Part shown: positions 2,278-44,927 of the stretch, one piece after another
Layout: each line of letters begins with the position of its first letter
Numbering within the stretch: the first letter of the stretch is position 1
Virus record (IMG/VR): IMGVR_UViG_3300037493_001856
Span: 1-62,362 of that record
Length of the DNA stretch: 62,362 nt
Reading direction: 5' to 3' (one strand)
DNA from: a virus
Taxonomy: Duplodnaviria > Caudoviricetes
Made by a program: the position numbers and the translations under genes
Notes under the pieces: model-generated
Databases searched by the model: none
What the model was told of the DNA's origin: nothing
The model's input: the letters and a program-made list of their open reading frames with translations, nothing else

Positions 2278-4062
2278 ATGAGCCTACAAGACATCAAGAT
2301 TCAACCGGGCATATATTCTGACGACACGGATCGTGACGTTGGTAAGCTCGGCTATTGGACGGATGGAGACAAGGTCCGGTTCTTCGCCGGGATGCCTACG
2401 AAACTGGGAGGCTGGACACGAGGCGCGGCAGACCCAGCGTTCGTGGGTGTTGCTCGGGGCAGTCTCGATCTGAGAACCACGAGGTCGGAGGTGTTTATCG
2501 CTTTCGGTACTCACCTTAAGTGCTTTGTGTGGGCAGGAGGAGGGTATAACGACGTTACGCCCCTGCGCGCTAGCGGGCAGCTAACCGATCCGTTTTCGAC
2601 TACGGACACCTTAGCGACGGTAAGCGTTGCTGATGTTGCTCACGGGGTACTGGCAGGCGATTACGTGCACTTCGCGAATGCTACGGCGGTTGGCGGAATC
2701 ACCATCAACGGGGAGTACACGGTTACTTCTGTCACGAGTGCAGATGCCTATGCCATTACGCATTCTGCGGTAGCTACTTCGACCGCTGGCCCCGGCGGCG
2801 GCACGGTTGACTATGAGTACGAAATCCCTCCCGGAGGGGCAGACTCCGTCGCAGGGCTCGGCTGGGGCGCAGGCTCTTGGGGCGAAAGTACGTGGGGAAC
2901 ACCGCGTACAGTTACCGATTTCCTGTCGGCAGCGCGCACGTGGCAGTTTGATCAGTGGGGCGAGGATGTCATCTGCAACCCCCGACAGGGAGGCATCTAC
3001 GTCTGGGACTCATCTTCCGGGGTCAATGTTCGCGCCACGTTAATTTCGCAGGCACCGACAACCGCAAAGGGCATTCTCGTTTCTCCCGAAGACAGGCACC
3101 TGATCGCGCTTGGGGCGCACGACGGAGTGGCTGACGACCCTCTGCTTGTTCGCTGGTGTGACCAAGAAAACTATACTGACTGGACGCCTTCGCTCACCAA
3201 CACCGCCGGCGACAAGCGACTGGACACAGGCAACGAGATTCTCTGTGCGGCCAAGGTGCGCGGGGAGCACCTGATCTTTACTGACTCTGCACTGTTTACC
3301 ATGCAGTACGTCGGCCCCCCCGACACGTTCGGATTCAAGACGCTCGGAGATAACGGCAACCTTGTTGGCCCGATGGCTGCACGCGCGTTTGAGGGAATTG
3401 CGTACTGGATGGGGGACAGGGACTTTTTCATCTACGACGGTGTGGCACGAGTGCTCGAATGCTCTGTCAGAGCCCATGTTTTCGACGACTTCAACCGCGT
3501 GCAACGCGCGAAGGTATATTGCGGGGTCAATCGCGATTACCGCGAGGTGTGGTGGCTATACCCGTCCGAAGCCTCCGACGAGTGCGACAGGTACGCGATT
3601 TACAACATGCAGGATAAGCTGTGGGCGTACGGAACAATGGCGAGAACCATGCTGATCGGCGACTCTGACGTGATCAACTACGTTTACGGGTTTGGGGCAG
3701 ACAGTTACTTGTACACACATGAGACGGGCACGGATGACTATTTGACCGCAATGACCGCGTACATCGAGTCGGGAGGTATCGAGCTTGACGCAGGAGGCAA
3801 CGCGATTGCGCATATCAGCAAAATGGTTCCGGACTTCAAGACCCTTGTCGGGTCCGTGGATTTGACGTTTACCGGCAAGAAATACCCGCAGGCGACAGAG
3901 ACGCAGACCAGCGGACCCCATGCAGTTACGTCGTCGACAACATTCGTCAACCCCCGGATGCGCTGCAGACAGATTTCGATCAAAGTATCCAGTGACGGCT
4001 TGGGGGATGACTGGCGATCTGGTATGCTGCGAGTTGACCTTATTCCTCACGGAGGCAGATAA
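2278..4062 (+). CDS. Tail tubular/nozzle (DNA stabilisation) protein
   Basis: W.DGDKVRF...P.KLGGW start, WGEDVI, VRWCDQE, EVWWLYPS; typical podovirus nozzle layout. Confidence 0.7.
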   Translation: MSLQDIKIQPGIYSDDTDRDVGKLGYWTDGDKVRFFAGMPTKLGGWTRGAADPAFVGVARGSLDLRTTRSEVFIAFGTHLKCFVWAGGGYNDVTPLRASGQLTDPFSTTDTLATVSVADVAHGVLAGDYVHFANATAVGGITINGEYTVTSVTSADAYAITHSAVATSTAGPGGGTVDYEYEIPPGGADSVAGLGWGAGSWGESTWGTPRTVTDFLSAARTWQFDQWGEDVICNPRQGGIYVWDSSSGVNVRATLISQAPTTAKGILVSPEDRHLIALGAHDGVADDPLLVRWCDQENYTDWTPSLTNTAGDKRLDTGNEILCAAKVRGEHLIFTDSALFTMQYVGPPDTFGFKTLGDNGNLVGPMAARAFEGIAYWMGDRDFFIYDGVARVLECSVRAHVFDDFNRVQRAKVYCGVNRDYREVWWLYPSEASDECDRYAIYNMQDKLWAYGTMARTMLIGDSDVINYVYGFGADSYLYTHETGTDDYLTAMTAYIESGGIELDAGGNAIAHISKMVPDFKTLVGSVDLTFTGKKYPQATETQTSGPHAVTSSTTFVNPRMRCRQISIKVSSDGLGDDWRSGMLRVDLIPHGGR

Positions 4063-4463
4063 TGAGTCGCCTGCCCGCGCGATTCCCGAACTTCGGAGAT
4101 GTGTTTGACGGCAACGCGATGCGGGCGTTTATCACGCACTTGGAGAATTTGTTCGCGCGAATCGACGTTGATACGACAGGCCCAGCATATCCGGTCACTG
4201 CAGGTGCAACACTGGTGGCAAGCGACGAAGTTGTCTTGGTTGACACAACCGGAGGGAACATCACGATGGTGCTACCGGGAATATCCGACTCTATGGTCAG
4301 GACGAAACGGGAGTTTGAAGTGGTGAAAATTGCGGCTGCGAACACCATGACCCTCGACTGCACCGGGGCGGATACGATTGTTGGCGAGCCCGACGCCGTT
4401 GTAACGGAGCAGTGGACCGCCCTGCGCGTACGCGCGACAACAGGGAATTGGGTGCTGGTATGA
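4062..4463 (+). CDS. Hypothetical virion protein
   Basis: Coupled to the upstream gene (TAATG); DTTGGNIT.VLP tail-like motif. Confidence 0.55.
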   Translation: MSRLPARFPNFGDVFDGNAMRAFITHLENLFARIDVDTTGPAYPVTAGATLVASDEVVLVDTTGGNITMVLPGISDSMVRTKREFEVVKIAAANTMTLDCTGADTIVGEPDAVVTEQWTALRVRATTGNWVLV

Positions 4464-4502
4464 GCACAACTCTTGGACTGAGGATAACTGAGGAGCACCG
4501 GT

Positions 4503-6119
4503 ATGACTGATGCAGAATACTCGGCGGCAAGAGACTATTATCGCCTCGCAGCAACAGGAGCGTCTAATCAGTTTTGGGGCGGTGCAGGGGCACCATACCA
4601 GTACGATTACTACAAAGAGAATGACCCAAACACAACAGCCGATGATGTGCTCACGGGAATGGGGGAGCATGACGAGAGTGCGAGGTATACATGGGCAGGG
4701 TACAACAGCCCGCAATACGTTGCTGCACTAAATAAAGCTGCCGCAGAAAGAACAGCGCTAGATAATGCAAGACTAGCAAGCCCCGGGGCTATTGGGGCGG
4801 CGTTGTCCCGACCTGACTTGGTTGGGCTGAATAGTCTTGGAATGAGTGGTGCTGAGTTGGCGTTTTACGATCCGGCTACCCTTGCGAATAACGGCATTAG
4901 GCTAACAGCGCAACAGCAGGCCGCGAGAGATTCGCAGATTGCCAATAGCACCCCTGCTGCACAAGACGATGGAGACGGTGGTTTTGGTCCGCTGCAGCTC
5001 GCCATGCTTGCCCTCGCGATTTATTCAGGTGGTGCTTCTGCCGGATTGTGGGGCGCGGCTGAAGGTATAGGCGCAGGAGCAGCAGGAGCGTTCGACACCT
5101 TTGCAACGACTGACTTGGTAAACGCTGGCTGGAACTCAGTTACGGGATACGGGCTCAGTGCTCCCTATTCGGGTGGATTTGTAAATAACGTGATTGACGC
5201 ATTGGGAAGCCAGTTCACCCCAGAAAAGATAGGGATGAATTTCTTGACGCAGGCGGGGGGGGATGCTTTCGGTGACCTCGCTGCAGGCCGGGACATCGAC
5301 ATAGACTTTGGTCGTGCCGGAACCGGTATGATTACCGGCGGGATCGGCGGTGCGATGGGTTCTGCGGGTACTGATTTCTTCGGTGATGTTGGAATGCCGT
5401 CGTGGGCCGCGAGACCTCTTGGTGGAGCCTTTGGGCAGCTTTCCGGGGCAGTGCTCAACGGGGCAGACTTGGAGACAGCCGGGGCGAACGCTTTGATTGG
5501 CGGGGCTAGCGGGGCAATCGGTGGCGGTGTCGGTTCGCTAGACCTTGGAGGGCAAGGGTCGTTCTTGGATCAGATCAGCCCGACTGTGGCCAAAGAGCTT
5601 TCGAGCATCGTGATGCGCGGCGGAGATGCTGAAGCAGTGAAGAACGCGCTGATTGCATCGGGAGTTAACCTTGGCACGTCTGCGGCAATGCAGCAGGTCG
5701 ACAAACTGTACGCGGAACTCAAGAATTATGTTACGGACGGCGAGTCTTCAGGTGTATCGAAAGCAGCTGATTGGCTGTACGGGCAAGGCAGGGGCATGGT
5801 GGGGCAGGAGCTTGCTACGAACGCGTATGGGGAGCTTGTAGATGGGGCTACGCCGCTGCACCAGACGCCCCAACGAACTGCACAGCAACGAACTGCACAG
5901 CAACGAACTGCACAGCAGTTGGCGCAGGGAAACCGAGGTTACGGCCAGAACATGCAGAATGCCGCGCGGCTGGCGCGAGGAGGTAACCCGTACTCGTTCG
6001 GGTACGACGCAGAAGCGCAAGACGAAGAAGAATCCGCCGCTCCGCCGGGAGCCCTTGATCCGGCAATGGAAGCAATGCTGGCAGAACTTGAACTTCCCGT
6101 AGAATACGGGTATGTGTAA
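4503..6119 (+). CDS. Gly/Ala-rich putative ejection (internal virion) protein
   Basis: Glycine-zipper-like segments; follows the nozzle gene. Confidence 0.5.
   Translation: MTDAEYSAARDYYRLAATGASNQFWGGAGAPYQYDYYKENDPNTTADDVLTGMGEHDESARYTWAGYNSPQYVAALNKAAAERTALDNARLASPGAIGAALSRPDLVGLNSLGMSGAELAFYDPATLANNGIRLTAQQQAARDSQIANSTPAAQDDGDGGFGPLQLAMLALAIYSGGASAGLWGAAEGIGAGAAGAFDTFATTDLVNAGWNSVTGYGLSAPYSGGFVNNVIDALGSQFTPEKIGMNFLTQAGGDAFGDLAAGRDIDIDFGRAGTGMITGGIGGAMGSAGTDFFGDVGMPSWAARPLGGAFGQLSGAVLNGADLETAGANALIGGASGAIGGGVGSLDLGGQGSFLDQISPTVAKELSSIVMRGGDAEAVKNALIASGVNLGTSAAMQQVDKLYAELKNYVTDGESSGVSKAADWLYGQGRGMVGQELATNAYGELVDGATPLHQTPQRTAQQRTAQQRTAQQLAQGNRGYGQNMQNAARLARGGNPYSFGYDAEAQDEEESAAPPGALDPAMEAMLAELELPVEYGYV
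5871..5915 (+). repeat. In-frame tandem repeat CAACGAACTGCACAG x3 (QRTAQ)
   Basis: Read directly from the sequence. Confidence 0.9.
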
Positions 6120-6130
6120 GGAGAACTGAG

Positions 6131-7309
6131 ATGGACGAAGCGACCGCAGAATGGTTACGAGAGCAAGGAATAGACCCGTATTTTACAGGGGAGACCGCTC
6201 TTGATACGTCATCAAACACATGGGGAGAGATTGCAGGTTTAGACCCTTCCGCAAACGACGCGTATCAGCTGTTGTTGGACGAAGGATTTATACCAAATGC
6301 AGACAACAACGCGCTGCCTGACCCTGCCAATTTCGTGTACAACGACTTAATATCAGGTCTCAGCGCAGCAGACATTGCAAAGATAGTAGGGTCTCCGGCA
6401 CTAAAAGCTGCGCTTGAAGCAGCGTCTTCAGCATCGAAAAGTAAGACGTTGTTGGACACGCTTAAATCGTCGACAGGGCTTTCTAGCGCTGCACTCGGAC
6501 TCGGCGGCACAGGACTTCTTGCTACGCTCGCTGCGCTCACCAGCAAACCATCGACTACGTCTGGCAACACGACGCAGGTCAGCAGCACAGGGCAGACAAC
6601 CGCAGGTACTACAGGGCAGACAACCGCAGGAACCAGCGGGCAGACGCAGAAAGTAGGCTTCGACCAGTGGTACGAGGACATGGTCAAGGCACAGGCGGAA
6701 GGTATTCCGACGAAGGGCTACGAGTCATTTGACAAGGACATGCTCAACCTGCCGAACAACCGTGCCATCGCGGACTACATGAGTCCGTACATGGAGCAGG
6801 TGGCGAATCCGATCATGCGTCGGCAGGCTGAAGATCAAGCCGCTCAGTCGCAGAAGTTCGCGGCAGAACGCGTGTCGCGCGGAGCGTTTGGTTCCGGGCG
6901 TGCGGACATACTCTCCAACCAGATGCAGGAGCGGCAAGCCCTTGAACGGGATAACACTCTCAGCGGCATCTACAACCAAGCATTCGGCAGTGCCACGGGG
7001 CTGGCGCAGAACGACCTTAGCCGCTCCTTCGATGACTGGAAGTTGCTGCAAGCAGGCGGGACAGGAACAGTCGGACAGGCAACGGCGCAAGGTAATCTGC
7101 TCAAAGGCTTGGCTCCGGGAGCTACGACGACGGTTGCTGGTACGACGGCAGGAACCACAGCGGGCACCACAGCGGGCACTACGACGGGCACCACGGGTCA
7201 GACCGGCACGACGAGCTACACCGGGGCAGACCCGAGCCGCCTTGGCCAGCTGGCAGGCATTTCTGGCACTATCTGGGGCATGGCCAACCCGAACGGACTT
7301 AAACCATAA
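6131..7309 (+). CDS. Putative DNA-transfer/ejection protein
   Basis: YMSPYMEQV and GAFGSGRA motifs typical of podovirus pilot/ejection proteins; T/G-rich repeats. Confidence 0.6.
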   Translation: MDEATAEWLREQGIDPYFTGETALDTSSNTWGEIAGLDPSANDAYQLLLDEGFIPNADNNALPDPANFVYNDLISGLSAADIAKIVGSPALKAALEAASSASKSKTLLDTLKSSTGLSSAALGLGGTGLLATLAALTSKPSTTSGNTTQVSSTGQTTAGTTGQTTAGTSGQTQKVGFDQWYEDMVKAQAEGIPTKGYESFDKDMLNLPNNRAIADYMSPYMEQVANPIMRRQAEDQAAQSQKFAAERVSRGAFGSGRADILSNQMQERQALERDNTLSGIYNQAFGSATGLAQNDLSRSFDDWKLLQAGGTGTVGQATAQGNLLKGLAPGATTTVAGTTAGTTAGTTAGTTTGTTGQTGTTSYTGADPSRLGQLAGISGTIWGMANPNGLKP

Positions 7310-7320
7310 GGAGCGAGATC

Positions 7321-7620
7321 ATGTACGGAATGGGAGCAAAACCCCCGATGGGGGCAATATCGTCAGCACTCAAGACTGGGCAAATGCAGGCACCGCAAAC
7401 GGGCGCAGCTGCGCAAGACATGCGCGAGTTGGCAAAAGACCCTCGGTTCATTGCGCTCGCCCAGCAAGTCGGCCCCGAGATGGCGATGCAGATTTTGAAA
7501 GGGGAGCAACAACAAGGTCGCGCAGCGACATCAGCAGGTGTAGCCGCTCTTGGCCAAGCAGGACAGCAAGAAGACGCTCGGTCGCAGTTTGGGGCGATGG
7601 CAGGTAGCGCGCGAGCGTAA
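7321..7620 (+). CDS. Hypothetical protein
   Basis: RBS AAGGAG; fills the operon. Confidence 0.6.
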   Translation: MYGMGAKPPMGAISSALKTGQMQAPQTGAAAQDMRELAKDPRFIALAQQVGPEMAMQILKGEQQQGRAATSAGVAALGQAGQQEDARSQFGAMAGSARA

Positions 7621-7630
7621 GGAGAAGATC

Positions 7631-8860
7631 ATGGCAGATATTCCAGCAGACTTTTTAGATGCCCACACGCGCCAGCAAGCAGGTCTCGCAGCACTAGGTC
7701 TTGCGCCTACCGAAGACGGGAGCGGGCTCGGAATGCTGGATAGGTTGCGCATGACGCTGAGTCGTGCAGCGGGGGGGAACTGGTCTCCTGATGCTACAGC
7801 GGAGGCGTCCGCAACAGCAAGTGCAGCTCCTCCTTCTGTTACCCCGGAAGCGATGGAGTTGTTCGGATACGCCCCGTTGACGGCAGCAAAAAATGCGCTG
7901 ACCGAAAAGGGGCCAGCAAGCAGGCCTGCAAGTCGTGGCCCTGCCGGGAACCGTGTTGGTGTTGCTGCACCAAACGCCGAGTTTGAGGCCTTGATGAAGC
8001 GGAAGCTGGCGTCTGCAGAAGCGGAAGCAGGGTTACTCGGCAAAGCTGCAGCAGACACGAAGGTATCTGACTGGGCCAACAAGCGCCGTGAGTTCGACAA
8101 AACGAACGTCCTCAATGTACCAGACCCGATGAACTCCCGTGCGATCTCCGACGCGATGATTGCGTTCGGCGGGAAGCTGCTAGCCTCTGAAGGGCGTGAT
8201 GTGGGTGGCGGTGTGCAGGAGGGCGGCAAAGCGTGGATGGCAGGACGCAACCGTAACGAAGATCAGGCAAGCAAAGAACGGGACTTCCGGCTCAAGTCCT
8301 TCATGGATACGATGGGGCTGGAGCAGAAGGATGTCGAGAGCTTGACAGCGAAAGACAAGGCTGTTCTTGCCGCAGCCATATCGGGCATACAGGCCAAGGA
8401 TGTGGACATCACATCGAGACTCGACTACGCGAAAGAAGGCCGCAAAGAAGCTCACGAGCTGGAGAAGGTGGATCGTCAGGGGCAGTGGACGGTCAGAGGA
8501 CATGAAGCGGGCAAGACTCCGAAGGAAGACCCCGTCGCGTTGCTTGAGCGTCTGGGTAAAAAACTCGGTGGCGTGGAAGCCGCGATTGCCGCGCAAGGAG
8601 GCAAAGCATCGCCCGAGCAGGAGTTCCTTCGTCGGGGGCTACACGGGCTGACTAAGGATGACCGTGAGCCAAAGGCCGAGAAGCTCGACCAAGCGGCGTA
8701 CGACGCATCACTTGCCCGTCTTTCTGCTATGAAAGTAGGGAAAGGGAAAGACCCTGTACCTAAAGCAGTACAGCTGGAGATTGCTGAAGGGGTCGGTAGA
8801 GGCCGACTTGATCCTGCGCGGATAGAGGAGTATGTTAAAGCTCGCTGGCCAGTACAATAA
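7631..8860 (+). CDS. Putative internal virion protein
   Basis: RBS AAGGAG before ATG 7631; helical, charged; within the ejection cluster. Confidence 0.55.
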   Translation: MADIPADFLDAHTRQQAGLAALGLAPTEDGSGLGMLDRLRMTLSRAAGGNWSPDATAEASATASAAPPSVTPEAMELFGYAPLTAAKNALTEKGPASRPASRGPAGNRVGVAAPNAEFEALMKRKLASAEAEAGLLGKAAADTKVSDWANKRREFDKTNVLNVPDPMNSRAISDAMIAFGGKLLASEGRDVGGGVQEGGKAWMAGRNRNEDQASKERDFRLKSFMDTMGLEQKDVESLTAKDKAVLAAAISGIQAKDVDITSRLDYAKEGRKEAHELEKVDRQGQWTVRGHEAGKTPKEDPVALLERLGKKLGGVEAAIAAQGGKASPEQEFLRRGLHGLTKDDREPKAEKLDQAAYDASLARLSAMKVGKGKDPVPKAVQLEIAEGVGRGRLDPARIEEYVKARWPVQ

Positions 8861-31327: not shown

Positions 31328-31455
31328 GTCTAACTTGCCAGTTCATTTCACTCTCCTTTGATTGTCCGGTATTCGACAGGATGTTTGGCTTCAACGGGTT
31401 ACCGCCGCGTGATGGAATGTTTTGCGTCTTTTAGGGGGTCTACTTAGCGTTATGC
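31328..31455 (+). mobile_element. Degenerate att-like site 1 (array boundary; long attC-like or attI-like)
   Basis: GTCTAAC at 31328 and GGTCTAC-ttagc-GTTATGC ending 31455; no good internal stem. Confidence 0.5.
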
Positions 31456-31707
31456 CCCTTCGGGTACGGCAACCGTGTTGTGCGGGCACCGATCAAGGCA
31501 AACCAACCGCCGAAGCTCAACCACATCACCCTCCTTTTCGCCGTAGCGTTTCCATGCCGTTGTCGATAGCGGCCCGAACAGCACGGCTCCGATCATCTCC
31601 CCCGCTTCGTAGAGCGCAAACGCCATGCTCACCTTGCAGCCGTTGATGCTCTTGCTGTAGTGGTGTTCCTCAATGAATGGCCGCACTACCGCAACCGCCA
31701 CGGGCAT
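31450..31707 (-). pseudogene. Cassette 1: N-terminal fragment of a Mom-like (GNAT) DNA-modification protein
   Basis: FIEEHHYS...IGAVLFG...VELRRLVC.D.CPHNT then early stop in the att core; no clear RBS. Confidence 0.55.
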
Positions 31708-31779
31708 AACACGGCGGTCAACACGGACGCCTGCCGGCGATAAAGCCGCCGTCATGCGCCGGTTACCTCAGCGTTAGCC
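31704..31779 (+). mobile_element. attC site 2
   Basis: GCATAAC..GGT[C]AAC[A]CGG[A]CGC / GCGCCGGTTACC..GTTAGCC. Confidence 0.9.
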
Positions 31780-31780
31780 G

Positions 31781-32002
31781 TCACCATGACATCGTGTCGC
31801 GCAGGGTGGAAATCTTCACGTTGTAAAGGCCTGTAGCCTTCATTTCTTCCATCGCGTTTTCCAACATCGCCAGCCGTTCCTTCTGCTCGGCAATCTTGCG
31901 CTCCAAGTTCTCGCCGCACGTCATCTGCTGCATCGGGTCTTTGTCTTTGCAGTAGCCAAGGGTATTCCCTGCCGGCATCATCACTTGGTTTCCTTCGTAC
32001 AT
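31781..32002 (-). CDS. Cassette 2: coiled-coil hypothetical protein
   Basis: RBS AAGGA; fills the cassette. Confidence 0.65.
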   Translation of the reverse strand: MYEGNQVMMPAGNTLGYCKDKDPMQQMTCGENLERKIAEQKERLAMLENAMEEMKATGLYNVKISTLRDTMSW

Positions 32003-32044
32003 GGTCATTCCTTTATTCAGTTGCCGTGGTTTACGTGGGCGCAC

Positions 32045-32111
32045 GGCTAACCCGTCGTTCCAGCGGAGCTACGCAATAAGGCCGCTTGCGCCGGTTATTT
32101 CTGCGTTAGCC
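32045..32111 (+). mobile_element. attC site 3 (hybrid, mismatched arms)
   Basis: GGCTAAC..TTCCAGCGGAGCTACGC / GCGCCGGTTATT..GTTAGCC. Confidence 0.75.
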
Positions 32112-32112
32112 G

Positions 32113-32370
32113 TCACAGTTGCGTGTATCCGCTCTCGAAAGCGCCTGCCGGTGAAAACGACTTGTAGCCGTCCTCATAGACCACGTAGTAGCCGCCGACT
32201 TCGGGCTTGTGTTTTGCCACGTATTCCGGCGACAGCGGCACTTTGTCGTAGCCTTCTTCGGCGGGCTGGAAATACACACCACCGTGCTGGTCGCCAACAA
32301 TCCCGGCAATCTTCAAAGCCCACACTTTCTTGTGGCATTCGTACTTCGGCATTTCGCGGCTTGCGTTCAT
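32113..32370 (-). CDS. Cassette 3: phage protein with YYVVYEDGYKSFSP..FE.GY motif
   Basis: RBS GAGGA; motif resembles the domain often fused N-terminally to DUF2829. Confidence 0.65.
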   Translation of the reverse strand: MNASREMPKYECHKKVWALKIAGIVGDQHGGVYFQPAEEGYDKVPLSPEYVAKHKPEVGGYYVVYEDGYKSFSPAGAFESGYTQL

Positions 32371-32409
32371 GTTTCTGTCCTCAAAAACCGTGGCTTCATC
32401 GGGCGTCAC

Positions 32410-32467
32410 GGCTAACCCGTCAATCAACCCGGACGGCTTTCAGCCGCCGGTTAGCTCTACGTTAGGC
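32410..32467 (+). mobile_element. attC site 4
   Basis: GGCTAAC..T[C]AAC[C]CGG[A]CGGC / GCCGCCGGTTAG..GTTAGGC. Confidence 0.9.
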
Positions 32468-32991
32468 CCCATGCCGAGTAGTGCTGTTAACTTTATCGGA
32501 GCGCAATTCGCCCCGTTCGCTTGCACTCCGTTCAACCTTGGGCGCAGGCAGTGGATATAAAGCGACTCCAACCTGTCCAGAGCATCAACAGAGCACGGAA
32601 CGAACGCATAGCGGTCAAACCGCTTTCCTGTGTGCTGTCCAATCCGAGAGTAGACATTCACGGCCTGCCCGACGTAAACAACCTCGTCCCCGTCGAGCAA
32701 GAAATACACCCCACTTGCCTTCGCCCACGGCAAGGCCGCTTTCGCTATTTCGTCCTCTCTCAGAAGCGCCGATCCAACCACAGCAGCAGAAACGGAGTGC
32801 ATTGTTTCCATGCGTTGCAGCGCGTCTAGCCTTTCTTCCAGTTCGGCTATCTGGCGGTGCAGTCCGCCAGCGTATTTGAGCGCATCTTGTCTTGCCGCAT
32901 CTTCAGCATCACGTCTTGCTCGGCGCGTAGCGTGGGCCTTTGCAGCAATCGCCTTGCGTTCTTCTGGCGTCTTGTTTTGCATCGGGTTCAT
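32440..32991 (-). CDS. Cassette 4: GIY-YIG-domain protein
   Basis: SGVYFL...VVYVGQA...SRI..H...LE..YI...P.LN; RBS GGAGG; C-terminus reads into attC 4 (PNVELTGG). Confidence 0.75.
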   Translation of the reverse strand: MNPMQNKTPEERKAIAAKAHATRRARRDAEDAARQDALKYAGGLHRQIAELEERLDALQRMETMHSVSAAVVGSALLREDEIAKAALPWAKASGVYFLLDGDEVVYVGQAVNVYSRIGQHTGKRFDRYAFVPCSVDALDRLESLYIHCLRPRLNGVQANGANCAPIKLTALLGMGPNVELTGG

Positions 32992-33003
32992 TTTTCCTCC
33001 AGT

Positions 33004-33060
33004 GCCTAACCCGGCAGTCCAGCGGACGCCGTGCCGGCGCCGCTGACTTTTGCGTTAGGC
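33004..33060 (+). mobile_element. attC site 5
   Basis: GCCTAAC..AGTC[C]AGCGG[A]CGCCG / CGGCGCCGCTGACT..GTTAGGC. Confidence 0.92.
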
Positions 33061-33327
33061 ACACCACCCGCAACAACCGAATGACAGCCCTGCCTCAAGC
33101 TGTCCGGCAATGATCGAGTATTCAGCCTCGTTGATTCCGTATTTCTCCAGCACTTCTGGTTTCGGCGGAACGCGAGTAAATTGCATGTCACCGCAAGCGT
33201 AGTACTCTGCGTTTTCGGCGTCCCTGTCGTATTTCTCTCCAAAGTCTTCGCTGTCGGCGTCAATGTCGTTAATCGTGAAAGTCGGCGTGTAACACAGTGC
33301 CGATCCAAATTCGAGTTCGAGTTTCAT
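33055..33327 (-). CDS. Cassette 5: acidic Cys-containing hypothetical protein
   Basis: RBS AGGAG; ends GCCGWCA with its stop inside the att core. Confidence 0.7.
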   Translation of the reverse strand: MKLELEFGSALCYTPTFTINDIDADSEDFGEKYDRDAENAEYYACGDMQFTRVPPKPEVLEKYGINEAEYSIIAGQLEAGLSFGCCGWCA

Positions 33328-33341
33328 GCTCTCTCCTGTGT

Positions 33342-33404
33342 GCCTAACATTTGCGTCAACGCGGACGCTTCGCAAGCTACGCGCCGGTTACGCCAGCGTT
33401 AGGA
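33342..33404 (+). mobile_element. attC site 6
   Basis: GCCTAAC..GCGT[C]AAC[G]CGG[A]CGC / GCGCCGGTTACGC..GTTAGGA. Confidence 0.9.
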
Positions 33405-33605
33405 ACCGCGCCGCACATCGGCCAGCGCCTTCGATAAATCCATGCTTGCCCGTTTCGCTGCCGCGCAGTGCTGCCCGCCGCAATAGTAGGGGTCTCCCTT
33501 GGCGTATTCAGTGCTTCCAGCGCACCGCTTCACAACGTCTGCCACTGCCAAAAACCTCTTGGCTTCGGCAACGGCTTTGTCCAGCGTCTTTACTCTAATG
33601 CTCAT
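33399..33605 (-). CDS. Cassette 6: small helical hypothetical protein
   Basis: AVAEAKRFL...AAAKRASMDLS.ALA..R; stop inside the att core. Confidence 0.7.
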   Translation of the reverse strand: MSIRVKTLDKAVAEAKRFLAVADVVKRCAGSTEYAKGDPYYCGGQHCAAAKRASMDLSKALADVRRGS

Positions 33606-33611
33606 GTCGTT

Positions 33612-33667
33612 TCCTAACCCTTCATTCAACCCGGACGCCTTCGGCGCCGGTTAATTCCACGTTAGAC
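33612..33667 (+). mobile_element. attC site 7
   Basis: TCCTAAC..ATT[C]AAC[C]CGG[A]CGCC-ttc-GGCGCCGGTTAAT..GTTAGAC. Confidence 0.92.
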
Positions 33668-33835
33668 ATCTATGAACACGACCCACTTCGGTTCTGACGC
33701 GGGCTTACGGTAGTGCGTTGCCTGCACATCTTCGGCATCATTCCAGTCGCCAGCCTCGTTGCGCACTTCAACCCTCGCATCCCCGTAGTCGGCGCGCATC
33801 TTCTCCAGCTTGGCGATCAATTCGTTTATGGTCAT
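33662..33835 (-). CDS. Hypothetical protein flanking the array
   Basis: MTINELIAKLE...YGD; stop TAA lies in the GTTAGAC core. Confidence 0.6.
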   Translation of the reverse strand: MTINELIAKLEKMRADYGDARVEVRNEAGDWNDAEDVQATHYRKPASEPKWVVFIDV

Positions 33836-35137: not shown

Positions 35138-35166
35138 ATAGTACGCATGTCTCACCCTGATGTCAA
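35138..35166 (-). promoter_or_regulatory. Sigma70-like promoter TTGACA-17-TACTAT driving the small-ORF/cassette operon
   Basis: Near-consensus; followed by RBS AAGGAG and ATG at 35118. Confidence 0.7.
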
Positions 35167-35204
35167 GCAAGACATGCGTGGAACTCGTTGTGAGATTCTC
35201 ACAG

Positions 35205-36056
35205 TCAGCCGCAAAGACCTTGCATCTGACGCAAAATCTCGTTGGTCTTGTCGATCACCGACGTGCGCAGGGCATCGTCCTTCTTGATGTCCTTCATCTC
35301 CAACCCGTTGGTCAGCTTGCGAATCTCCGACCGCATGGTGTCAATGCCAGCGTCATTGGTGATGTTCAGGCCGGGGAGCCTGTCGAGCAGGTCGACGATG
35401 TTGTCCAGTGCGGAGTCAACCAGCTTGCCGTCAGACTGCAGCCGGTCGCGCAGGTGGGAGACAGTACCCACAAGCTCCGTCCAAACAGACTCGACCATGC
35501 CCTGCACGCGAGAGTTGAGTGATGCTTCGATCTCCTGCCGCACCTCGTCGACGACATCGTCACCCATCTCCACACGGAAATCTCCGGCGACAGGCAGAGG
35601 CATGACGGTGAAGTCCATGTAGAACTTCTCGCGAATCTCCCACGACTGCGGGTAGTCGGCCTCGTTGAACAGCGAGTTCAGCCGCAGCTTGGCGCGGTCG
35701 CGGTGCATGTCGTAGTCACGGCAGAACACATCGACAGCATTCTTGAATTCAACCTTAAGTTCCCGCAAGCGATCCATCACGGTGAAGTAGTTGAGCGACG
35801 AGAGCACGCGGTCGCCGTTGTCCGACCACGGCAGGGTGTGCTGGTAGAAGAACCTGCGCGCAGCCCCGACGATCTGCACCATCGGCAGCAGGGAGTTTTT
35901 GTCAATGATCTGCTTGTTAAACCGTCCGGCATCAGACGCGGCGGCATGGTTCACCGTTACCTCCTGCGTGGCGGACTTGTCCAGCTTGCGTGCAGTCCAC
36001 TGGCCGATCTTGAGCGAGACCAGCATGGCTCGCGATGCGATGTTTTCAGTTGTCAT
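35205..36056 (-). CDS. DUF3150-like phage protein
   Basis: AMLVSL.I..WTARKLDK, TLPW.D.G.R, LFN..DYP, LNITND; co-occurs with MoxR/VWA. Confidence 0.6.
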   Translation of the reverse strand: MTTENIASRAMLVSLKIGQWTARKLDKSATQEVTVNHAAASDAGRFNKQIIDKNSLLPMVQIVGAARRFFYQHTLPWSDNGDRVLSSLNYFTVMDRLRELKVEFKNAVDVFCRDYDMHRDRAKLRLNSLFNEADYPQSWEIREKFYMDFTVMPLPVAGDFRVEMGDDVVDEVRQEIEASLNSRVQGMVESVWTELVGTVSHLRDRLQSDGKLVDSALDNIVDLLDRLPGLNITNDAGIDTMRSEIRKLTNGLEMKDIKKDDALRTSVIDKTNEILRQMQGLCG

Positions 36057-37694: not shown

Positions 37695-38351
37695 TCACAG
37701 CTTGATGTTGTCGCCGAACGGACACTCGTCGGCGGTTGTTACGGTGATGTGCGGAGCCACCCGCTCCTCGAACACCCCTTTCTTGACCCACTTGTTTATC
37801 GTTGATGGGCAAACCCCTGCGAGCCGCGCCCATCCTGTAAGGTGATGTGTTGTACCTTGCACTGTCAGCCAGCGGTTCTGCCGCGGGTTTGCCCCTTGCT
37901 CGAGCGGTGTAGCCCACCGACAGTTGTCGGGTGAGTACGGGCCGTTGTTGTCCCGCCGGTCAAGCGACTTCCCTTCCGGCTTGAGCCCCATGTCACCCAA
38001 GAAGTTGGAGAACGTCCGCCACCTGTCACACACGGTAATCCCGCGACCTCCATACTTTGGGTATGCCTTGTCGTTCGGGTTCGTACAGCGTTGAGTCATC
38101 GCCTTCCAGATGCGATGCTCCGGCGTATTGCAAGCCCCGTGGACAATCTGGTGGTATGGCTCAAACCCTACGTACTGCCCACACCCACAGGACTTGGTGT
38201 TCCCAGACCGGAGCCGCCCTGTGGTGACGACAGTGACCTGCCCACAATCACAGGCGCACTCCCACGCAACGTTCCGCCCTTCGTGCACCCCTTGGCGGGT
38301 CACAACCAGCCGCCCAAACCGCCGACCGATCAAACACTTTTTCGCAGGCAT
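37695..38351 (-). CDS. HNH homing endonuclease
   Basis: GRRFGRL.V, C.CDCG, KSCGC, W..M..RC, YGGRGI.VC.RW, SLDR.DNNG.YSP.NCRWAT. Confidence 0.85.
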   Translation of the reverse strand: MPAKKCLIGRRFGRLVVTRQGVHEGRNVAWECACDCGQVTVVTTGRLRSGNTKSCGCGQYVGFEPYHQIVHGACNTPEHRIWKAMTQRCTNPNDKAYPKYGGRGITVCDRWRTFSNFLGDMGLKPEGKSLDRRDNNGPYSPDNCRWATPLEQGANPRQNRWLTVQGTTHHLTGWARLAGVCPSTINKWVKKGVFEERVAPHITVTTADECPFGDNIKL

Positions 38352-39463
38352 TAGTCCATCCTTATAACGTCCCCCCACGGAGGTATGACATCGGTCGTGA
38401 GGCACCATATCACCGGAAACTCAGGCGGCTCGGGGTCGTAGGGGGTTTCGCCGTCCGAGAGCCATATCATAACAACAGGTAGTGTATCACACTCACCGGC
38501 GAGCTTTGTAGCTGGCCTCAAGTCCGTACCACCACCCCCATGTACGTCAGCCTTGAGCTTCTCGCCATCTGCGTAATGGTCGACCGCCGTCACGCGCGCA
38601 TCGCACTGGATCACGGTCACGCACTCGGGCTTGCACTCGTCGCATATCGACTGGACCTCGTCGAGAAACTCTCCGACGCGGGCGACGATACTTCCGCTTG
38701 TGTCGATACCCACCACCACGCGCCCCATGCCGGGGTTGTGCAGAGCCGGCAGGTACATGCCCTGTGCCAAGAACCTGCGCTGCCCACGGTTCCACGACTG
38801 GTCGTTCTTCAAGACCTGAGTCATGTACCGGCGCAACTCCTCCCGCCAGTCGACCTTGGGTGCGAGTGCCTGCTCGACCAGACCTGCGAGAGACGCGGGG
38901 AGTGCCCCTTGAGCTTTGGCTTGGTTCGCGGCTTGCGTTATGCGTACCTTCGCCTCCGCCTCGGACTGCTGCCTCTCCTGCTCGTTACCGGGGGCGTCCA
39001 TGCAGTCATCGAACTGGTCGCCGTCACCTTGACCTGAACCTTGGCCGTCGTCGGGCGGCGGGTCGGGGAGCTTGTTATAGATTTCCTCGAACGCCTGCCC
39101 CTTGTACTGCGTACCATCGAGCCCCTCGGGCGGGAGCGAGAACCCTGCCTCGGCGATGATCGGATTGATCGCCAAGTCCATCGCTTGATTCGCCTTCTTG
39201 TGATTGCGCGAGCCCTTCCGCCACGGGTGCAGCATGGCAACGTGCATGACCTCGTGCACAAGAACTCCGCAGACTTCCTCAACAGACCATCGCGTGATCG
39301 CGTCGGGGTGGACGAACACAGACTTGCCGTTGGTAGCGGCAGTCGGCGGCTTGAGGCTAGCGTCTATCTTCAGGTCCATGCCCAGCAGGACAGATGCGAA
39401 GAACGGTGACCTCATGACCACGCGGGTCCGGGCCTTGGCCAGCTTGTCGTTAACGATGCTCAT
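38351..39463 (-). CDS. DUF2201 metallopeptidase + VWA-like protein
   Basis: TAATNG, HEVMH, DTSGS (MIDAS), GGGGTD, SDG. Confidence 0.85.
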   Translation of the reverse strand: MSIVNDKLAKARTRVVMRSPFFASVLLGMDLKIDASLKPPTAATNGKSVFVHPDAITRWSVEEVCGVLVHEVMHVAMLHPWRKGSRNHKKANQAMDLAINPIIAEAGFSLPPEGLDGTQYKGQAFEEIYNKLPDPPPDDGQGSGQGDGDQFDDCMDAPGNEQERQQSEAEAKVRITQAANQAKAQGALPASLAGLVEQALAPKVDWREELRRYMTQVLKNDQSWNRGQRRFLAQGMYLPALHNPGMGRVVVGIDTSGSIVARVGEFLDEVQSICDECKPECVTVIQCDARVTAVDHYADGEKLKADVHGGGGTDLRPATKLAGECDTLPVVMIWLSDGETPYDPEPPEFPVIWCLTTDVIPPWGDVIRMD

Positions 39464-41642: not shown

Positions 41643-41672
41643 ATTATAGCATAGGTGGAGGGTCTGTGTCAA
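41643..41672 (-). promoter_or_regulatory. Consensus sigma70 promoter TTGACA-18-TATAAT with extended TG
   Basis: Perfect hexamers. Confidence 0.75.
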
Positions 41673-43385: not shown

Positions 43386-43688
43386 GATGTCTTTTCCTTT
43401 AAGTAAGTTCTGCATAACGTTATGCAGTGACTACATTATAACACGCTTTCCCCCATATGCGGAGGATTCGAGCTTTGTGAGAATCTCACAGCAAGGCTTG
43501 AGAGAATCTGGCGAGCGACCCATGCCGGGGGGCCGGGGGGCAAATCGTTTTCGTGGTGTGGGAGGGGGCGCGCCACTCCCACGATCACTAAAAAACGAGA
43601 GGGGGGAGTGGGGGCTATCAAAAATCACTTGATTTTAAGGTGTTCTTCGCGTAAAGTCCTACCTACACGCACACCCCGGAGAGTCGCC

Positions 43689-44927
43689 ATGTTAGGAAAA
43701 CGATTTGGAAAACTTGTAGTTTTGGAGAAGCTCAGGTCTCACCCTCAGATAAAGAAAGACGGGTACTACCGTTGCCGCTGTGACTGCGGCACCATTTGTG
43801 AGGCCCGAGCGACCTCGTTACGCAAAGGGCACAAGCGGTCATGTGGCTGTCTCGCTGCGATTGCACAATCGTCGCCGTGGGTAGGCCGCGCCGTCGGTCA
43901 GCTCACGGTAGTGGAAAAACTTGAGGGTAAGCGCTACCGTTGTGTGTGCGCTTGCGGGAGAGAAATCGTGTCAACCAGCATGTGGAGTCGCAACAAGACC
44001 GCCGAGGCGGGAGGGGAGGTTAACTGCCGTGGTCCGGCTCACAGTATTGTGAGGGGGCCAAAGATACCTAAACCTAGAGGGTGTGCCAGCAAGCATGAGC
44101 TGTACAGCGTGTGGCGAGGGATAATGACGAGGTGTCTGAATGTATCGTCGCCCGCCTACCCTGTGTATGGCGGGCGAGGTATCACAATTTGCTCTGATTG
44201 GGCGAACGATTTTTGGGCTTTTGCGGTATACGTAGACAGCGTGCTTGGTGTGAGGCCGTCGTCTGGCCACTCGATTGATAGGGTAAATAACAATTCAGGG
44301 TATGAACCTGAAAATATCCGCTGGGCGACGAGCCTAGAACAAGGCCGAAACACTAGGAATTGTCGCCCGTTTCGGTATAAAGGTGTTTTGTGGCCTGCTC
44401 ATACAGCCGCATTTGACGCGTGGGTTGCTGACGGGCGACCGGATTGTTGGGAGTTTCGTACAGCTAGTATGTCAAGGCGACTTAATGGTCAGCTGTCCGC
44501 AAAAGAGAGGGGGGAAGCTAGAGAGGCAGCTGATGCCCTCTCTATGGTGCTACACAAAGAAAAACAGATAGCACGCGGTGTAGAAAAGCAGGCACAGCGA
44601 AAAGCTCGTCTGGATAAGTTGTTGCGTCCCGCGAAAGTGTTAGGCGACGTGCTGCGGTTGAGGGGGTTGGTGGCTGTAACGCTGGCCGATGTGGATGTGT
44701 TGGTGACGTTGTGCTTGAATCGAGGAGTTGCCCCTACGCGGCACTATCAGATAACCAGCTTACAGATAGCAGCTAGGGCCGCAGCACGTATGCCGCATAT
44801 GTTCTCTGTAGATTCGTCCGGAGACTGGTGTAGGGAAGTACGCCTATTGTCTCACCCTCATGCCGTCGAGCCTGCACTTTCGTCGGTGACCTGCACTTTC
44901 GTCGGTGACCTGCACTTTCGTCGGTGA
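43689..44927 (+). CDS. HNH homing endonuclease with C-terminal extension
   Basis: GKRFGKL.V, CRCDCG, RSCGC, YGGRGI.IC, SIDR.NN...YEP.NIRWAT. Confidence 0.75.
   Translation: MLGKRFGKLVVLEKLRSHPQIKKDGYYRCRCDCGTICEARATSLRKGHKRSCGCLAAIAQSSPWVGRAVGQLTVVEKLEGKRYRCVCACGREIVSTSMWSRNKTAEAGGEVNCRGPAHSIVRGPKIPKPRGCASKHELYSVWRGIMTRCLNVSSPAYPVYGGRGITICSDWANDFWAFAVYVDSVLGVRPSSGHSIDRVNNNSGYEPENIRWATSLEQGRNTRNCRPFRYKGVLWPAHTAAFDAWVADGRPDCWEFRTASMSRRLNGQLSAKERGEAREAADALSMVLHKEKQIARGVEKQAQRKARLDKLLRPAKVLGDVLRLRGLVAVTLADVDVLVTLCLNRGVAPTRHYQITSLQIAARAAARMPHMFSVDSSGDWCREVRLLSHPHAVEPALSSVTCTFVGDLHFRR

Follow-up and report, generated by a model that had tools for sequence, protein, structure and literature searches.

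Integron cassettes of a phage attC array and of related viral arrays carry their genes antisense to attC polarity

Introduction

Do the genes of an integron cassette array have to follow the polarity of its attC sites, and do phages arrange such cassettes in the same way as bacteria? The question is raised by a 62,362-nucleotide viral DNA (Duplodnaviria; Caudoviricetes; IMG/VR record IMGVR_UViG_3300037493_001856), which is called the window below and was analysed at its full length. Six attC hairpins on its + strand (31704-33667) alternate with six cargo open reading frames (ORFs) that are all encoded on the - strand. To our knowledge, integrons are known as bacterial gene-capture platforms, and attC clusters in phages have been reported only as rare look-alikes of the bacterial ones. 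In the canonical bacterial cassette, the ORF is encoded by the attC top strand, is followed by attC on the 3′ side and is read from the promoter Pc beside attI, with the integrase gene intI being divergent. Reverse-oriented cassettes are found in sedentary chromosomal integrons, such as the Vibrio toxin-antitoxin cassettes with their own promoters, as a minority in sense arrays. A first-pass annotation of the window had proposed that its cassettes are inverted as an adaptation to the phage, and this proposal was followed here by comparing viral with bacterial arrays of the same attC type.

Results

Six attC sites are combined with antisense genes

The covariance model R1, built from the six window hairpins, returned exactly six matches on the 62,362 bases, all on the + strand and with E-values of 5e-10 to 3e-15.

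31704-31779, + strand: attC site S1, 76 nt, R1 62.8 bits, folded as DNA
32045-32111, + strand: attC site S2, 67 nt, R1 53.7 bits
32410-32467, + strand: attC site S3, 58 nt, R1 76.3 bits, nearest of the six to the family consensus
33004-33060, + strand: attC site S4, 57 nt, R1 70.3 bits
33342-33404, + strand: attC site S5, 63 nt, R1 61.4 bits
33612-33667, + strand: attC site S6, 56 nt, R1 68.5 bits, last site, R′ box G↓TTAGAC (arrow, crossover)
31437-31455, + strand: left junction, R′-like box GTTATGC (31449-31455) after a degenerate stretch resembling an attC 3′ arm

An attC site is defined by the R″ box RYYYAAC and the R′ box GTTRRRY around an imperfect hairpin of about 57-141 nt (length range as given in the text of PMC5371416), and R″ and R′ core boxes around an imperfect hairpin of 56-76 nt were found in all six. 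TAAC...GTTAG is invariant among them, being preceded by C in five (CTAAC) and by A in S1 (ATAAC), and the motif CCGGTTA-N6-CGTTAG occurs five times forward and never in reverse in the window, with no occurrence in the controls. Predicted DNA folds have energies of -8.5 to -21.7 kcal/mol, and 86% of the pair cells in the six-site alignment are paired versus 21-38% when the partners are slid; covariation in this alignment was not significant, the same level being reached by 75 of 500 shuffles. By these sequence and folding features the six hairpins are confirmed as genuine integron attC sites, of a type common in Betaproteobacteria. From this attC type, Rhodocyclales or Nitrosomonadales would be the probable hosts. 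At the left junction the expected crossover is G31449↓T31450; a degenerate site considered there (S0, 31328-31455) obtained no R1 score and was rejected, so that only its R′-like box was retained as a junction.

The cassettes delimited by these crossovers, and the flanking phage gene outside them, are as follows.

31450-31773, - strand: cassette 1, ORF 31450-31755, 101 amino acids, Mom-like N-terminal fragment
31774-32105, - strand: cassette 2, ORF from 31781 to 32002 or 32008, about 73-75 amino acids, codon score +33
32106-32461, - strand: cassette 3, 356 nt, ORF 32113-32370, 85 amino acids, phrog_11049 (E 1e-24)
32462-33054, - strand: cassette 4, ORF 32440-32991, 183 amino acids, weak GIY-YIG match
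33055-33398, - strand: cassette 5, ORF 33055-33327, 90 amino acids, stop in the TTA of the S4 R′ box
33399-33661, - strand: cassette 6, ORF 33399-33605, 68 amino acids, stop in the TTA of the S5 R′ box
33662-33835, - strand: flanking phage gene, 57 amino acids, phrog_6992 (E 5e-6), stop in the TTA of the S6 R′ box

All six cargo ORFs are on the - strand, as the first-pass annotation had stated, and this assignment was borne out by codon usage and family matches. The codon-usage log-odds, for which long ORFs from the viral loci described below served as the training set, were +11 to +36 for the - strand ORFs of the window and -22 to -55 for the five + strand ORFs tested, and Pfam or PHROG matches at E ≤ 0.001 were obtained for four of the seven ORFs from cassette 1 to the flanking gene. 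Thus, where a canonical cassette has its ORF on the attC top strand and attC at the 3′ side, all six genes here lie on the bottom strand.

Viral and bacterial arrays of one attC type carry opposite gene orientations

Loci were fetched with the motif CGCCGGTTANNTCNNCGTTAG from viral contigs and from bacterial and archaeal genome contigs. The viral contigs yielded 57 loci with 235 R1 matches (E ≤ 1), organized in arrays in which almost all matches of a locus share the same strand. The bacterial and archaeal contigs yielded at least 120 loci, mostly of Betaproteobacteria (Zoogloea, Accumulibacter, Thiobacillus, Gallionella and Azonexus), and those listed among them contained 307 matches at E ≤ 0.01. 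The viral tally was based on 194 matches, comprising those with E up to about 0.01, those in three stretches re-fetched around matches to the integron integrase IntI (with three weaker ones included) and the six sites of the window. Wherever two same-strand matches followed each other at 90-3000 nt, the interval between them was taken, identical intervals being removed, and the gene of each interval was called as the best-scoring ORF that lay at least 70% inside it with a score above 5, using a separate codon table for each set.

Tabulated in this way, 105 of the 118 viral intervals carried an antisense gene and 4 a sense gene (9 without a call), versus 16 antisense and 131 sense genes in the 196 intervals of the listed bacterial loci (49 without a call). 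Counted by locus, 43 of the 45 viral loci had an antisense majority, with one sense-majority locus (L020) and one without a call, and 49 of the 59 listed bacterial loci had a sense majority and 8 an antisense majority. Fisher's test for viral versus listed bacterial arrays gave p ~1e-48 on intervals, which are not independent, and 4e-19 on loci. The proposal of phage-adapted inverted cassettes is thus supported by the viral/bacterial split, as obtained with one model and one method.

The called genes were spot-checked against protein families: PHROG matches were found for five of ten random viral antisense ORFs, and Pfam matches (glyoxalase, hexapeptide transferase, BrnT, Tdi1, TPR) for six of ten random bacterial sense ORFs. 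In the GenBank phage MW202573, all four R1 matches are antisense to the coding sequences annotated by the depositors, a result independent of our own gene caller. Genes within 4 kb of the viral arrays were co-directional with the cargo in 197 cases and not in 72 (nine near-duplicate loci skipped).

The sense-oriented viral calls came from four loci only (L020, L013, L041 and L058), of which L020 possibly represents a bacterial integron that borders on a region called as provirus. The antisense-majority bacterial loci among those listed were L086, L105, L114, L140, L149, L157, L182 and L186. Among them, L114 is a 1.6-kb contig binned as Saccharibacteria whose site scores 75.8 bits, near to S3 (76.3 bits), and it may be phage DNA binned into a metagenome-assembled genome. 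Prophage origin was considered for the bacterial exceptions and was not borne out, since eight antisense ORFs from the first 80 bacterial loci gave one weak PHROG match when searched against phage families.

In the same phage MW202573 (our locus L216) an attC-like stretch was also seen at 5979-6163, which over 34 nt shares 97% identity with the 5′ arm of S4; it is annotated by the depositors as two hypothetical proteins of 29-39 amino acids. These two mini-ORFs are, judging from the sequence, probably attC sites mis-called as genes.

Phage-encoded integrases and bulged bases define the + strand as the top strand

Full-length IntI was detected in 2 of the 50 viral records searched (57 loci in total), scoring 466 and 428 bits (cut-off, 265).

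L070, 1646-2662, - strand: intI, full length, product 56% identical to IntI1
L071, 5879-6919, - strand: intI, full length

When both proteins were used as queries, 15 viral loci were obtained (L195-L209). Wherever flanks are present, the phage intI is co-directional with its upstream and downstream genes, the cassette ORFs included, and the intI stop of L070 overlaps the start codon region of the gene that follows. Such an arrangement suggests that IntI could be expressed within a phage operon and not from a divergent SOS-type promoter. As a separate observation, in L072 (G049; 5037-7958) two attC matches enclose, on the same strand, a fragment of IntI that covers its N-terminal part (model positions 3-131, 134 bits), an arrangement unlike that of the other phage IntI loci.

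The attC sites at the phage intI loci have the canonical orientation to intI. Six of these loci (L195, L198, L201, L207, L208 and L209) include an upstream flank with R1 matches, and in all six every upstream match lies upstream of the intI 5′ end and on the opposite strand; L202 gave no R1 match, and L195 has an extra weak + strand match (25 bits) about 4 kb downstream of intI. In canonical attC sites, the extrahelical bases on the R″/L″ arm of the bottom strand define the polarity. In the predicted DNA folds of S1, S3, S4 and S6, the bulged T and G are located in the 3′ arm of the - strand. On two class 1 integron plasmids, R1 matched the aac(6′)-Ib attC on the coding strand, straight after the stop codon, in both cases: at 3329-3400 (+) following aac(6′)-Ib at 2780-3334 (+) in L073, and at 4397-4326 (-) following the gene at 4392-4946 (-) in L074, with scores of 38.5 and 40.7 bits (E 6e-7 and 2e-7). 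This class 1 control also checks, indirectly, the arm on which the canonical bulged bases are placed. Bulges, class 1 orientation and intI geometry together indicate that the + strand of the window is the top strand, as the first-pass annotation had it.

Homology breakpoints delimit an ORF with the attC on its 5′ side

Homology blocks (at least 150 nt, at least 70% identity) between non-duplicate viral arrays ended on the left ten times at R′ versus twice at R″, and on the right 17 times at R′ versus once at R″, with the remaining ends elsewhere or mixed. For the four ORFs shared between loci and having called sites on both sides in both loci, two of the four cases being related loci, the attC on the 5′ side of the ORF was always the better conserved one (likeness 0.93, 0.93, 0.98 and 0.65, versus 0.71, 0.42, 0.73 and 0.44 on the other side). 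Cassette 3 of the window matches L010, L043 and L045 in blocks of 88-91% identity that extend from R′ to R′.

Metagenome runs were compared as contigs, in which the strand is not visible and transcription is not provable, and where parts of the stretch have no cover (runs X2, X3, X19 and X13) this does not show that they are absent. Sampled words of the window were recovered to 95% in one run, possibly the source sample, and to about 16-19% in the others. Cassette 3 was found as a unit in lake-water, wastewater and sediment runs and in RNA libraries of several studies, with high contig depth, and cassette 4 in wastewater and RNA-library contigs (32460-33057 and 32461-33030). Contigs from other samples break at 31451, 32104, 32460/61 and 33660. 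One lake-water contig matches 32324-32435 exactly, continues with 33 other letters and then follows 33660-33835 with one mismatch, so that it represents a relative without cassettes 4-6 whose break lies at the R′ of S6; a second contig of the same run matches 31338-31451 and then diverges, placing its break at the left G↓TT. These sequence breakpoints fit an integrase crossover at the + strand R′, and since both blocks and sample junctions end at its G↓TT, the mobile unit appears to combine an ORF with the attC that lies 5′ of it.

Two further observations were made on cassette 3: it occurs in those runs alongside many different attC loop variants, and some wastewater contigs contain joints at which the sequence goes back by 362 positions, reflecting a circle, a tandem copy or a cycle in the assembly graph, among which contigs cannot tell.

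Core boxes overlap translation signals in both kinds of cassette

The core boxes had also been read as translation signals in the first-pass annotation, and most of the particulars were recovered from the sequence. Four stops (31450, 33055, 33399 and 33662) coincide with the TTA of an R′ GTTA, the one at 31450 belonging to the left junction box, and two (31781 and 32113) lie 1 nt outside the 7-bp box. In cassette 4 the ORF extends into S3, reaching 22 nt beyond the crossover point; its last codons are formed by the 3′ arm and loop of that site, and it ends in PNVELTGG. The start of the cassette 1 ORF is inside S1, with one ATG in the R″ box (31705-31707) and a second at 31755, and the AGGA of cassette 6 is within the R″ box of S6. 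A tail reading NAKVSGAG, mentioned along with these, is encoded by the spurious ORF 33006-33308.

The use of core boxes as translation signals is real but ordinary, being mirrored in bacterial cassettes: of the 105 viral antisense ORFs, 21 stop at the in-frame TAA of the R′ box, and of 85 bacterial sense ORFs (first 80 bacterial loci), 29 stop at its mirror image in R″. Because a box TAA is in frame as a stop in one frame out of three, this overlap does not exceed chance plus compaction. With the crossover at G↓TT and TAA as the last cassette triplet, an inverted cassette would carry its own stop wherever it moves.

The array lies in a leftward block of small early genes

The window is a complete virulent-type phage genome. 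The IMG/VR record has direct terminal repeats and a 100% completeness rating, and its genes include those for a DNA polymerase, a primase/helicase, a helicase, the large terminase and a portal protein, as well as several for HNH endonucleases. A search with the integron integrase family TIGR02249 over all 62,362 bases gave no match, and the array is thus an attC cluster without an integrase (CALIN) and not a complete integron. Scans of the window for tRNA genes and, at gathering thresholds, for Rfam families were also without a match.

Genes are directed leftward over about 17-43 kb and rightward elsewhere, and the GC skew tracks this direction, being negative over 17-43 kb, with its cumulative minimum at about 42 kb and its maximum at about 17 kb. 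The array is located among small early genes of the leftward block. The only sizeable intergenic gap upstream of it contains a sigma-70-like candidate promoter, TTGACA-17-TACTAT, at 35166-35138 (- strand). A simple consensus search found no sigma-70-like site on either strand within 31.4-33.9 kb, and no terminator-like site was found on the - strand inside the array. Two palindromes at 35148-35203, ACGCATGTCT...AGACATGCGT and TGTGAGATTCTCACA, overlap the promoter-like site, and could be an operator or a terminator. Another site, at 41672-41643 (- strand), agrees with the sigma-70 consensus at 12 of 12 positions and has an extended -10 TG; it stands at the head of the leftward block near the skew minimum at about 42 kb, making the 41643-41672 area a candidate origin and early-promoter region.

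No isolate phage matched the 27-39 kb part by megablast, and no relatives were found via the flanking protein encoded at 35205-36056. The DNA polymerase retrieved five related loci, of which the one with 94% identity stops short of the array region.

Viral cargo includes anti-defence-type families

Among 99 viral antisense ORFs scanned, N6_N4_Mtase was found in five and Phage_gp49_66 in four; Tad3 (E 4e-39), Tad2-like (1e-22), Mom, Lar, DUF5131 and RNA ligase were found once each, and a radical-SAM PHROG family and a Lar-like PHROG family in one and two ORFs, respectively. Most of these ORFs belong to no named family. The cargo apparently has an anti-defence flavour, as read from these family matches, which are not a statistical enrichment test.

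Discussion

A proposed phage pool of inverted cassettes kept by expression

We consider it probable that the array is a genuine CALIN within a phage operon, whose inverted cassettes are moved by IntI and belong to a phage-specific pool that is maintained through expression. According to this reading, the CALIN would be embedded in a leftward early/DNA-metabolism operon of a virulent-type phage. Each inverted cassette would have its gene on the attC bottom strand, with the stop at or beside the R′ crossover of the preceding site and with the ribosome-binding site and start abutting or entering the gene's own attC, the unit being stop-ORF-start followed by attC. The mover would be an integron integrase cutting at the G↓TT of R′, either that of the host or the in-line IntI of related phages. 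Transcription of the array would come solely from the upstream phage promoters, with the sites at 35166-35138 and 41672-41643 (- strand) as candidates, and would run towards attI/intI, the reverse of Pc, so that only genes antisense to attC would be expressed and kept; intI itself could be read as one further operon gene. New cassettes would enter by attC x attC recombination, which preserves the orientation automatically, and a first insertion at a secondary G↓TTA, provided by a TAA-C stop, would spare the neighbouring gene (compare 33661/33662). Selection of polarity would in this way be driven by expression. From integron geometry it also follows that, once captured by a bacterial integron, an inverted cassette should face Pc head-on and be silent.

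A wider proposal, which we advance tentatively and with rather less confidence, is that phages of Betaproteobacteria, and perhaps others, run an integron system of their own: a separate, mirror-image and counter-defence-enriched pool with the ORF on the attC bottom strand and attC as 5′ leader, shuffled by host or in-line phage IntI. Polarity would insulate expression between phage and bacterial pools that share one machinery, and the recombinogenic strand would be placed for easiest folding in phage replication and transcription.

Several points weigh against these proposals. A single 17-base attC motif seeded all sets, so the result covers that attC type; viral status was taken from IMG/VR, many viral contigs are fragments, and kin contigs are not independent. 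Gene strand came mostly from our own codon-score caller, which left the uncalled intervals given above (9 of 118 viral and 49 of 196 listed bacterial), and the split has its exceptions in the 4 sense viral and the 16 antisense bacterial intervals of the listed loci. Recombination at G↓TT is read here from sequence breakpoints, and contigs cannot show strand-specific expression. A phage could in principle carry ordinary cassettes co-oriented with its operon, and the expression argument fully explains the bias only with intI/attI fixing the orientation, the window having no intI. The 35.15-kb promoter is a consensus match, of a kind found three times versus 4.5 times expected in shuffles. Four relatives with 50-56% DNA polymerase identity have no R1 match (E ≤ 0.1), i.e. 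no array, and with the 94% relative stopping short, the empty site is not reconstructable.

Alternative explanations

The inversion may have been selected through replication and not through expression, the strand in question folding easily and the arrays being highly mobile, the opposite of sedentary integrons. We regard this as unlikely, though worth serious attention. It is compatible with the expression-kept pool, for which it would supply a second reason, the bottom strand being both the lagging-strand template and the non-template strand, which would favour its folding. The negative skew over 17-43 kb would make the - strand the G-rich 'leading' strand over the array. According to the text of Loot et al. 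[quoted passage not shown] On the other side, GC skew is the one pointer to replication direction in the window, and it follows the gene strand exactly, so that it may reflect transcription or coding bias.

It is improbable that the hairpins act mainly as RNA or DNA elements (mRNA stabilisers, processing sites or translational regulators), being attC look-alikes or exapted sites that are no longer moved. In the - strand mRNA each hairpin does directly precede a ribosome-binding site, cassette 6 would have its AGGA sequestered in the stem, and the window contains no integrase; however, relatives differ in array content with breaks exactly at G↓TT, identical cassettes are found in different arrays, full-length IntI stands beside such arrays in some related phages, and 5 of 6 attC sites of other virulent phages recombined with attI1 under IntI1 according to the text of Qi et al. 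2023 (PMC9892861). The hairpins may have an RNA role as a second function.

Still less credible is a mis-assigned polarity, with the - strand as the functional top strand and ordinary gene-then-attC cassettes. The attC sites are near-palindromes, and on the - strand each gene directly precedes a hairpin whose first box contains its TAA. Nevertheless, the same R1 in the same orientation is sense in the listed bacterial arrays (131 versus 16) and in both class 1 cases, it points away from intI in six of six phage IntI loci, the bulges are in the 3′ arm of the - strand, and homology blocks and junctions of other samples stop at the assigned R′ and not at the other box. Passive capture of a bacterial integron segment whose + strand cargo has decayed, the - strand ORFs being due to chance, is barely tenable as an explanation of the array, since the attC type is indeed that of Betaproteobacterial integrons but the codon scores (-22 to -55 for + strand versus +11 to +36 for - strand ORFs), the phage families of the - strand cargo and the identical layout at 43 of 45 viral loci speak against it.

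Relation to known systems

The inverted array resembles canonical cassettes, both of class 1 and of Betaproteobacterial chromosomal integrons, in its R″/L″/L′/R′ hairpins with bulges, its putative G↓TT crossover, its apparently promoterless compact ORFs and the stops that often fall in a core box; it differs in having the ORF on the bottom strand, attC at the 5′ side and a putative distant phage promoter, and in an intI that, where present, is co-directional and downstream. With the reverse toxin-antitoxin cassettes of sedentary integrons it shares ORFs antisense to attC polarity; unlike in those, the inversion extends over almost all of the array, within which the simple consensus search found no promoter-like site.

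The only relevant paper found, by Qi, Rajabal, Ghaly, Tetu and Gillings (Front Microbiol 2023, PMC9892861), reports in its text 17 CALINs in 10,705 isolate genomes and treats the phage CALINs as resembling bacterial arrays. The array of the window is similar to these in consisting of attC sites with short ORFs in a virulent phage, lacking intI and including DNA methyltransferase cargo, and one of their examples, MW202573, has the same attC type and antisense layout. What differs from that text is the systematic inversion, the contrast with bacterial arrays of the same type and the in-line phage IntI. ORFs antisense to attC are not mentioned in the text of Qi et al., whose figures or supplements may show them as arrows, and no description of inverted phage cassettes was found in the literature searched.

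The text of Darracq et al. (bioRxiv 10.1101/2024.07.02.601686) presents sedentary chromosomal integrons as banks in which cassettes for defence against phages are kept. The viral arrays would be likewise a shuffled store of genes for phage-bacterium conflict; the store described there is bacterial, made up of defence genes and in sense orientation, and the present one is phage-borne, antisense and of anti-defence type (Tad2, Tad3, Lar, Mom and orphan methyltransferases). The mirror-image layout shared by related viral contigs suggests that phages keep a mobile cassette pool of their own.

If systematic inversion and in-line integrases hold true, phages would own a modular exchange system for accessory genes, anti-defence genes apparently among them, as the counterpart of the bacterial defence-cassette banks. 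The orientation of the ORF relative to attC would then be a simple marker of phage versus bacterial cassettes in metagenomes and in integron amplicon surveys, where 'reverse' ORFs may now be discarded. The inversion would also allow the influence of promoter position, replication and strand folding on cassette polarity to be tested in nature, and would qualify the idea of phages ferrying expressible cassettes into bacterial integrons, since these would arrive silent.

Genes of the individual cassettes and other features

The cassette 5 protein has no relatives in Pfam or PHROG and no usable match in the ESM Atlas, and the cassette 2 ORF matches no family of Pfam or PHROG. The cassette 6 ORF has a weak PHROG match (E 0.007), and the GIY-YIG match of cassette 4 (PF01541, E 5e-4) is below the Pfam cut-off. 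The cassette 3 protein falls into unnamed viral clusters of the ESM Atlas, and has homologues of 50% identity in the structural/head module of isolate phages (Ralstonia phage GP4 and others); no array is annotated at these GP4-type loci, where R1 was not run.

The cassette 1 ORF (codon score +17) matches positions 4-85 of 202 of PF25680 (E 4e-11) and 22-103 of 245 of phrog_1384 (E 1e-21). It thus spans only the N-terminal 40% of the Mom family and stops exactly at the left junction box, and represents either what is left of a gene truncated by recombination at a secondary GTT site or a short domain that stands on its own.

Three HNH endonuclease genes were also noticed in the window (37695-38408, 38351-39463 and 43608-44927), two of which belong to phrog_374 and are located on opposite strands at either side of the early-late switch region.

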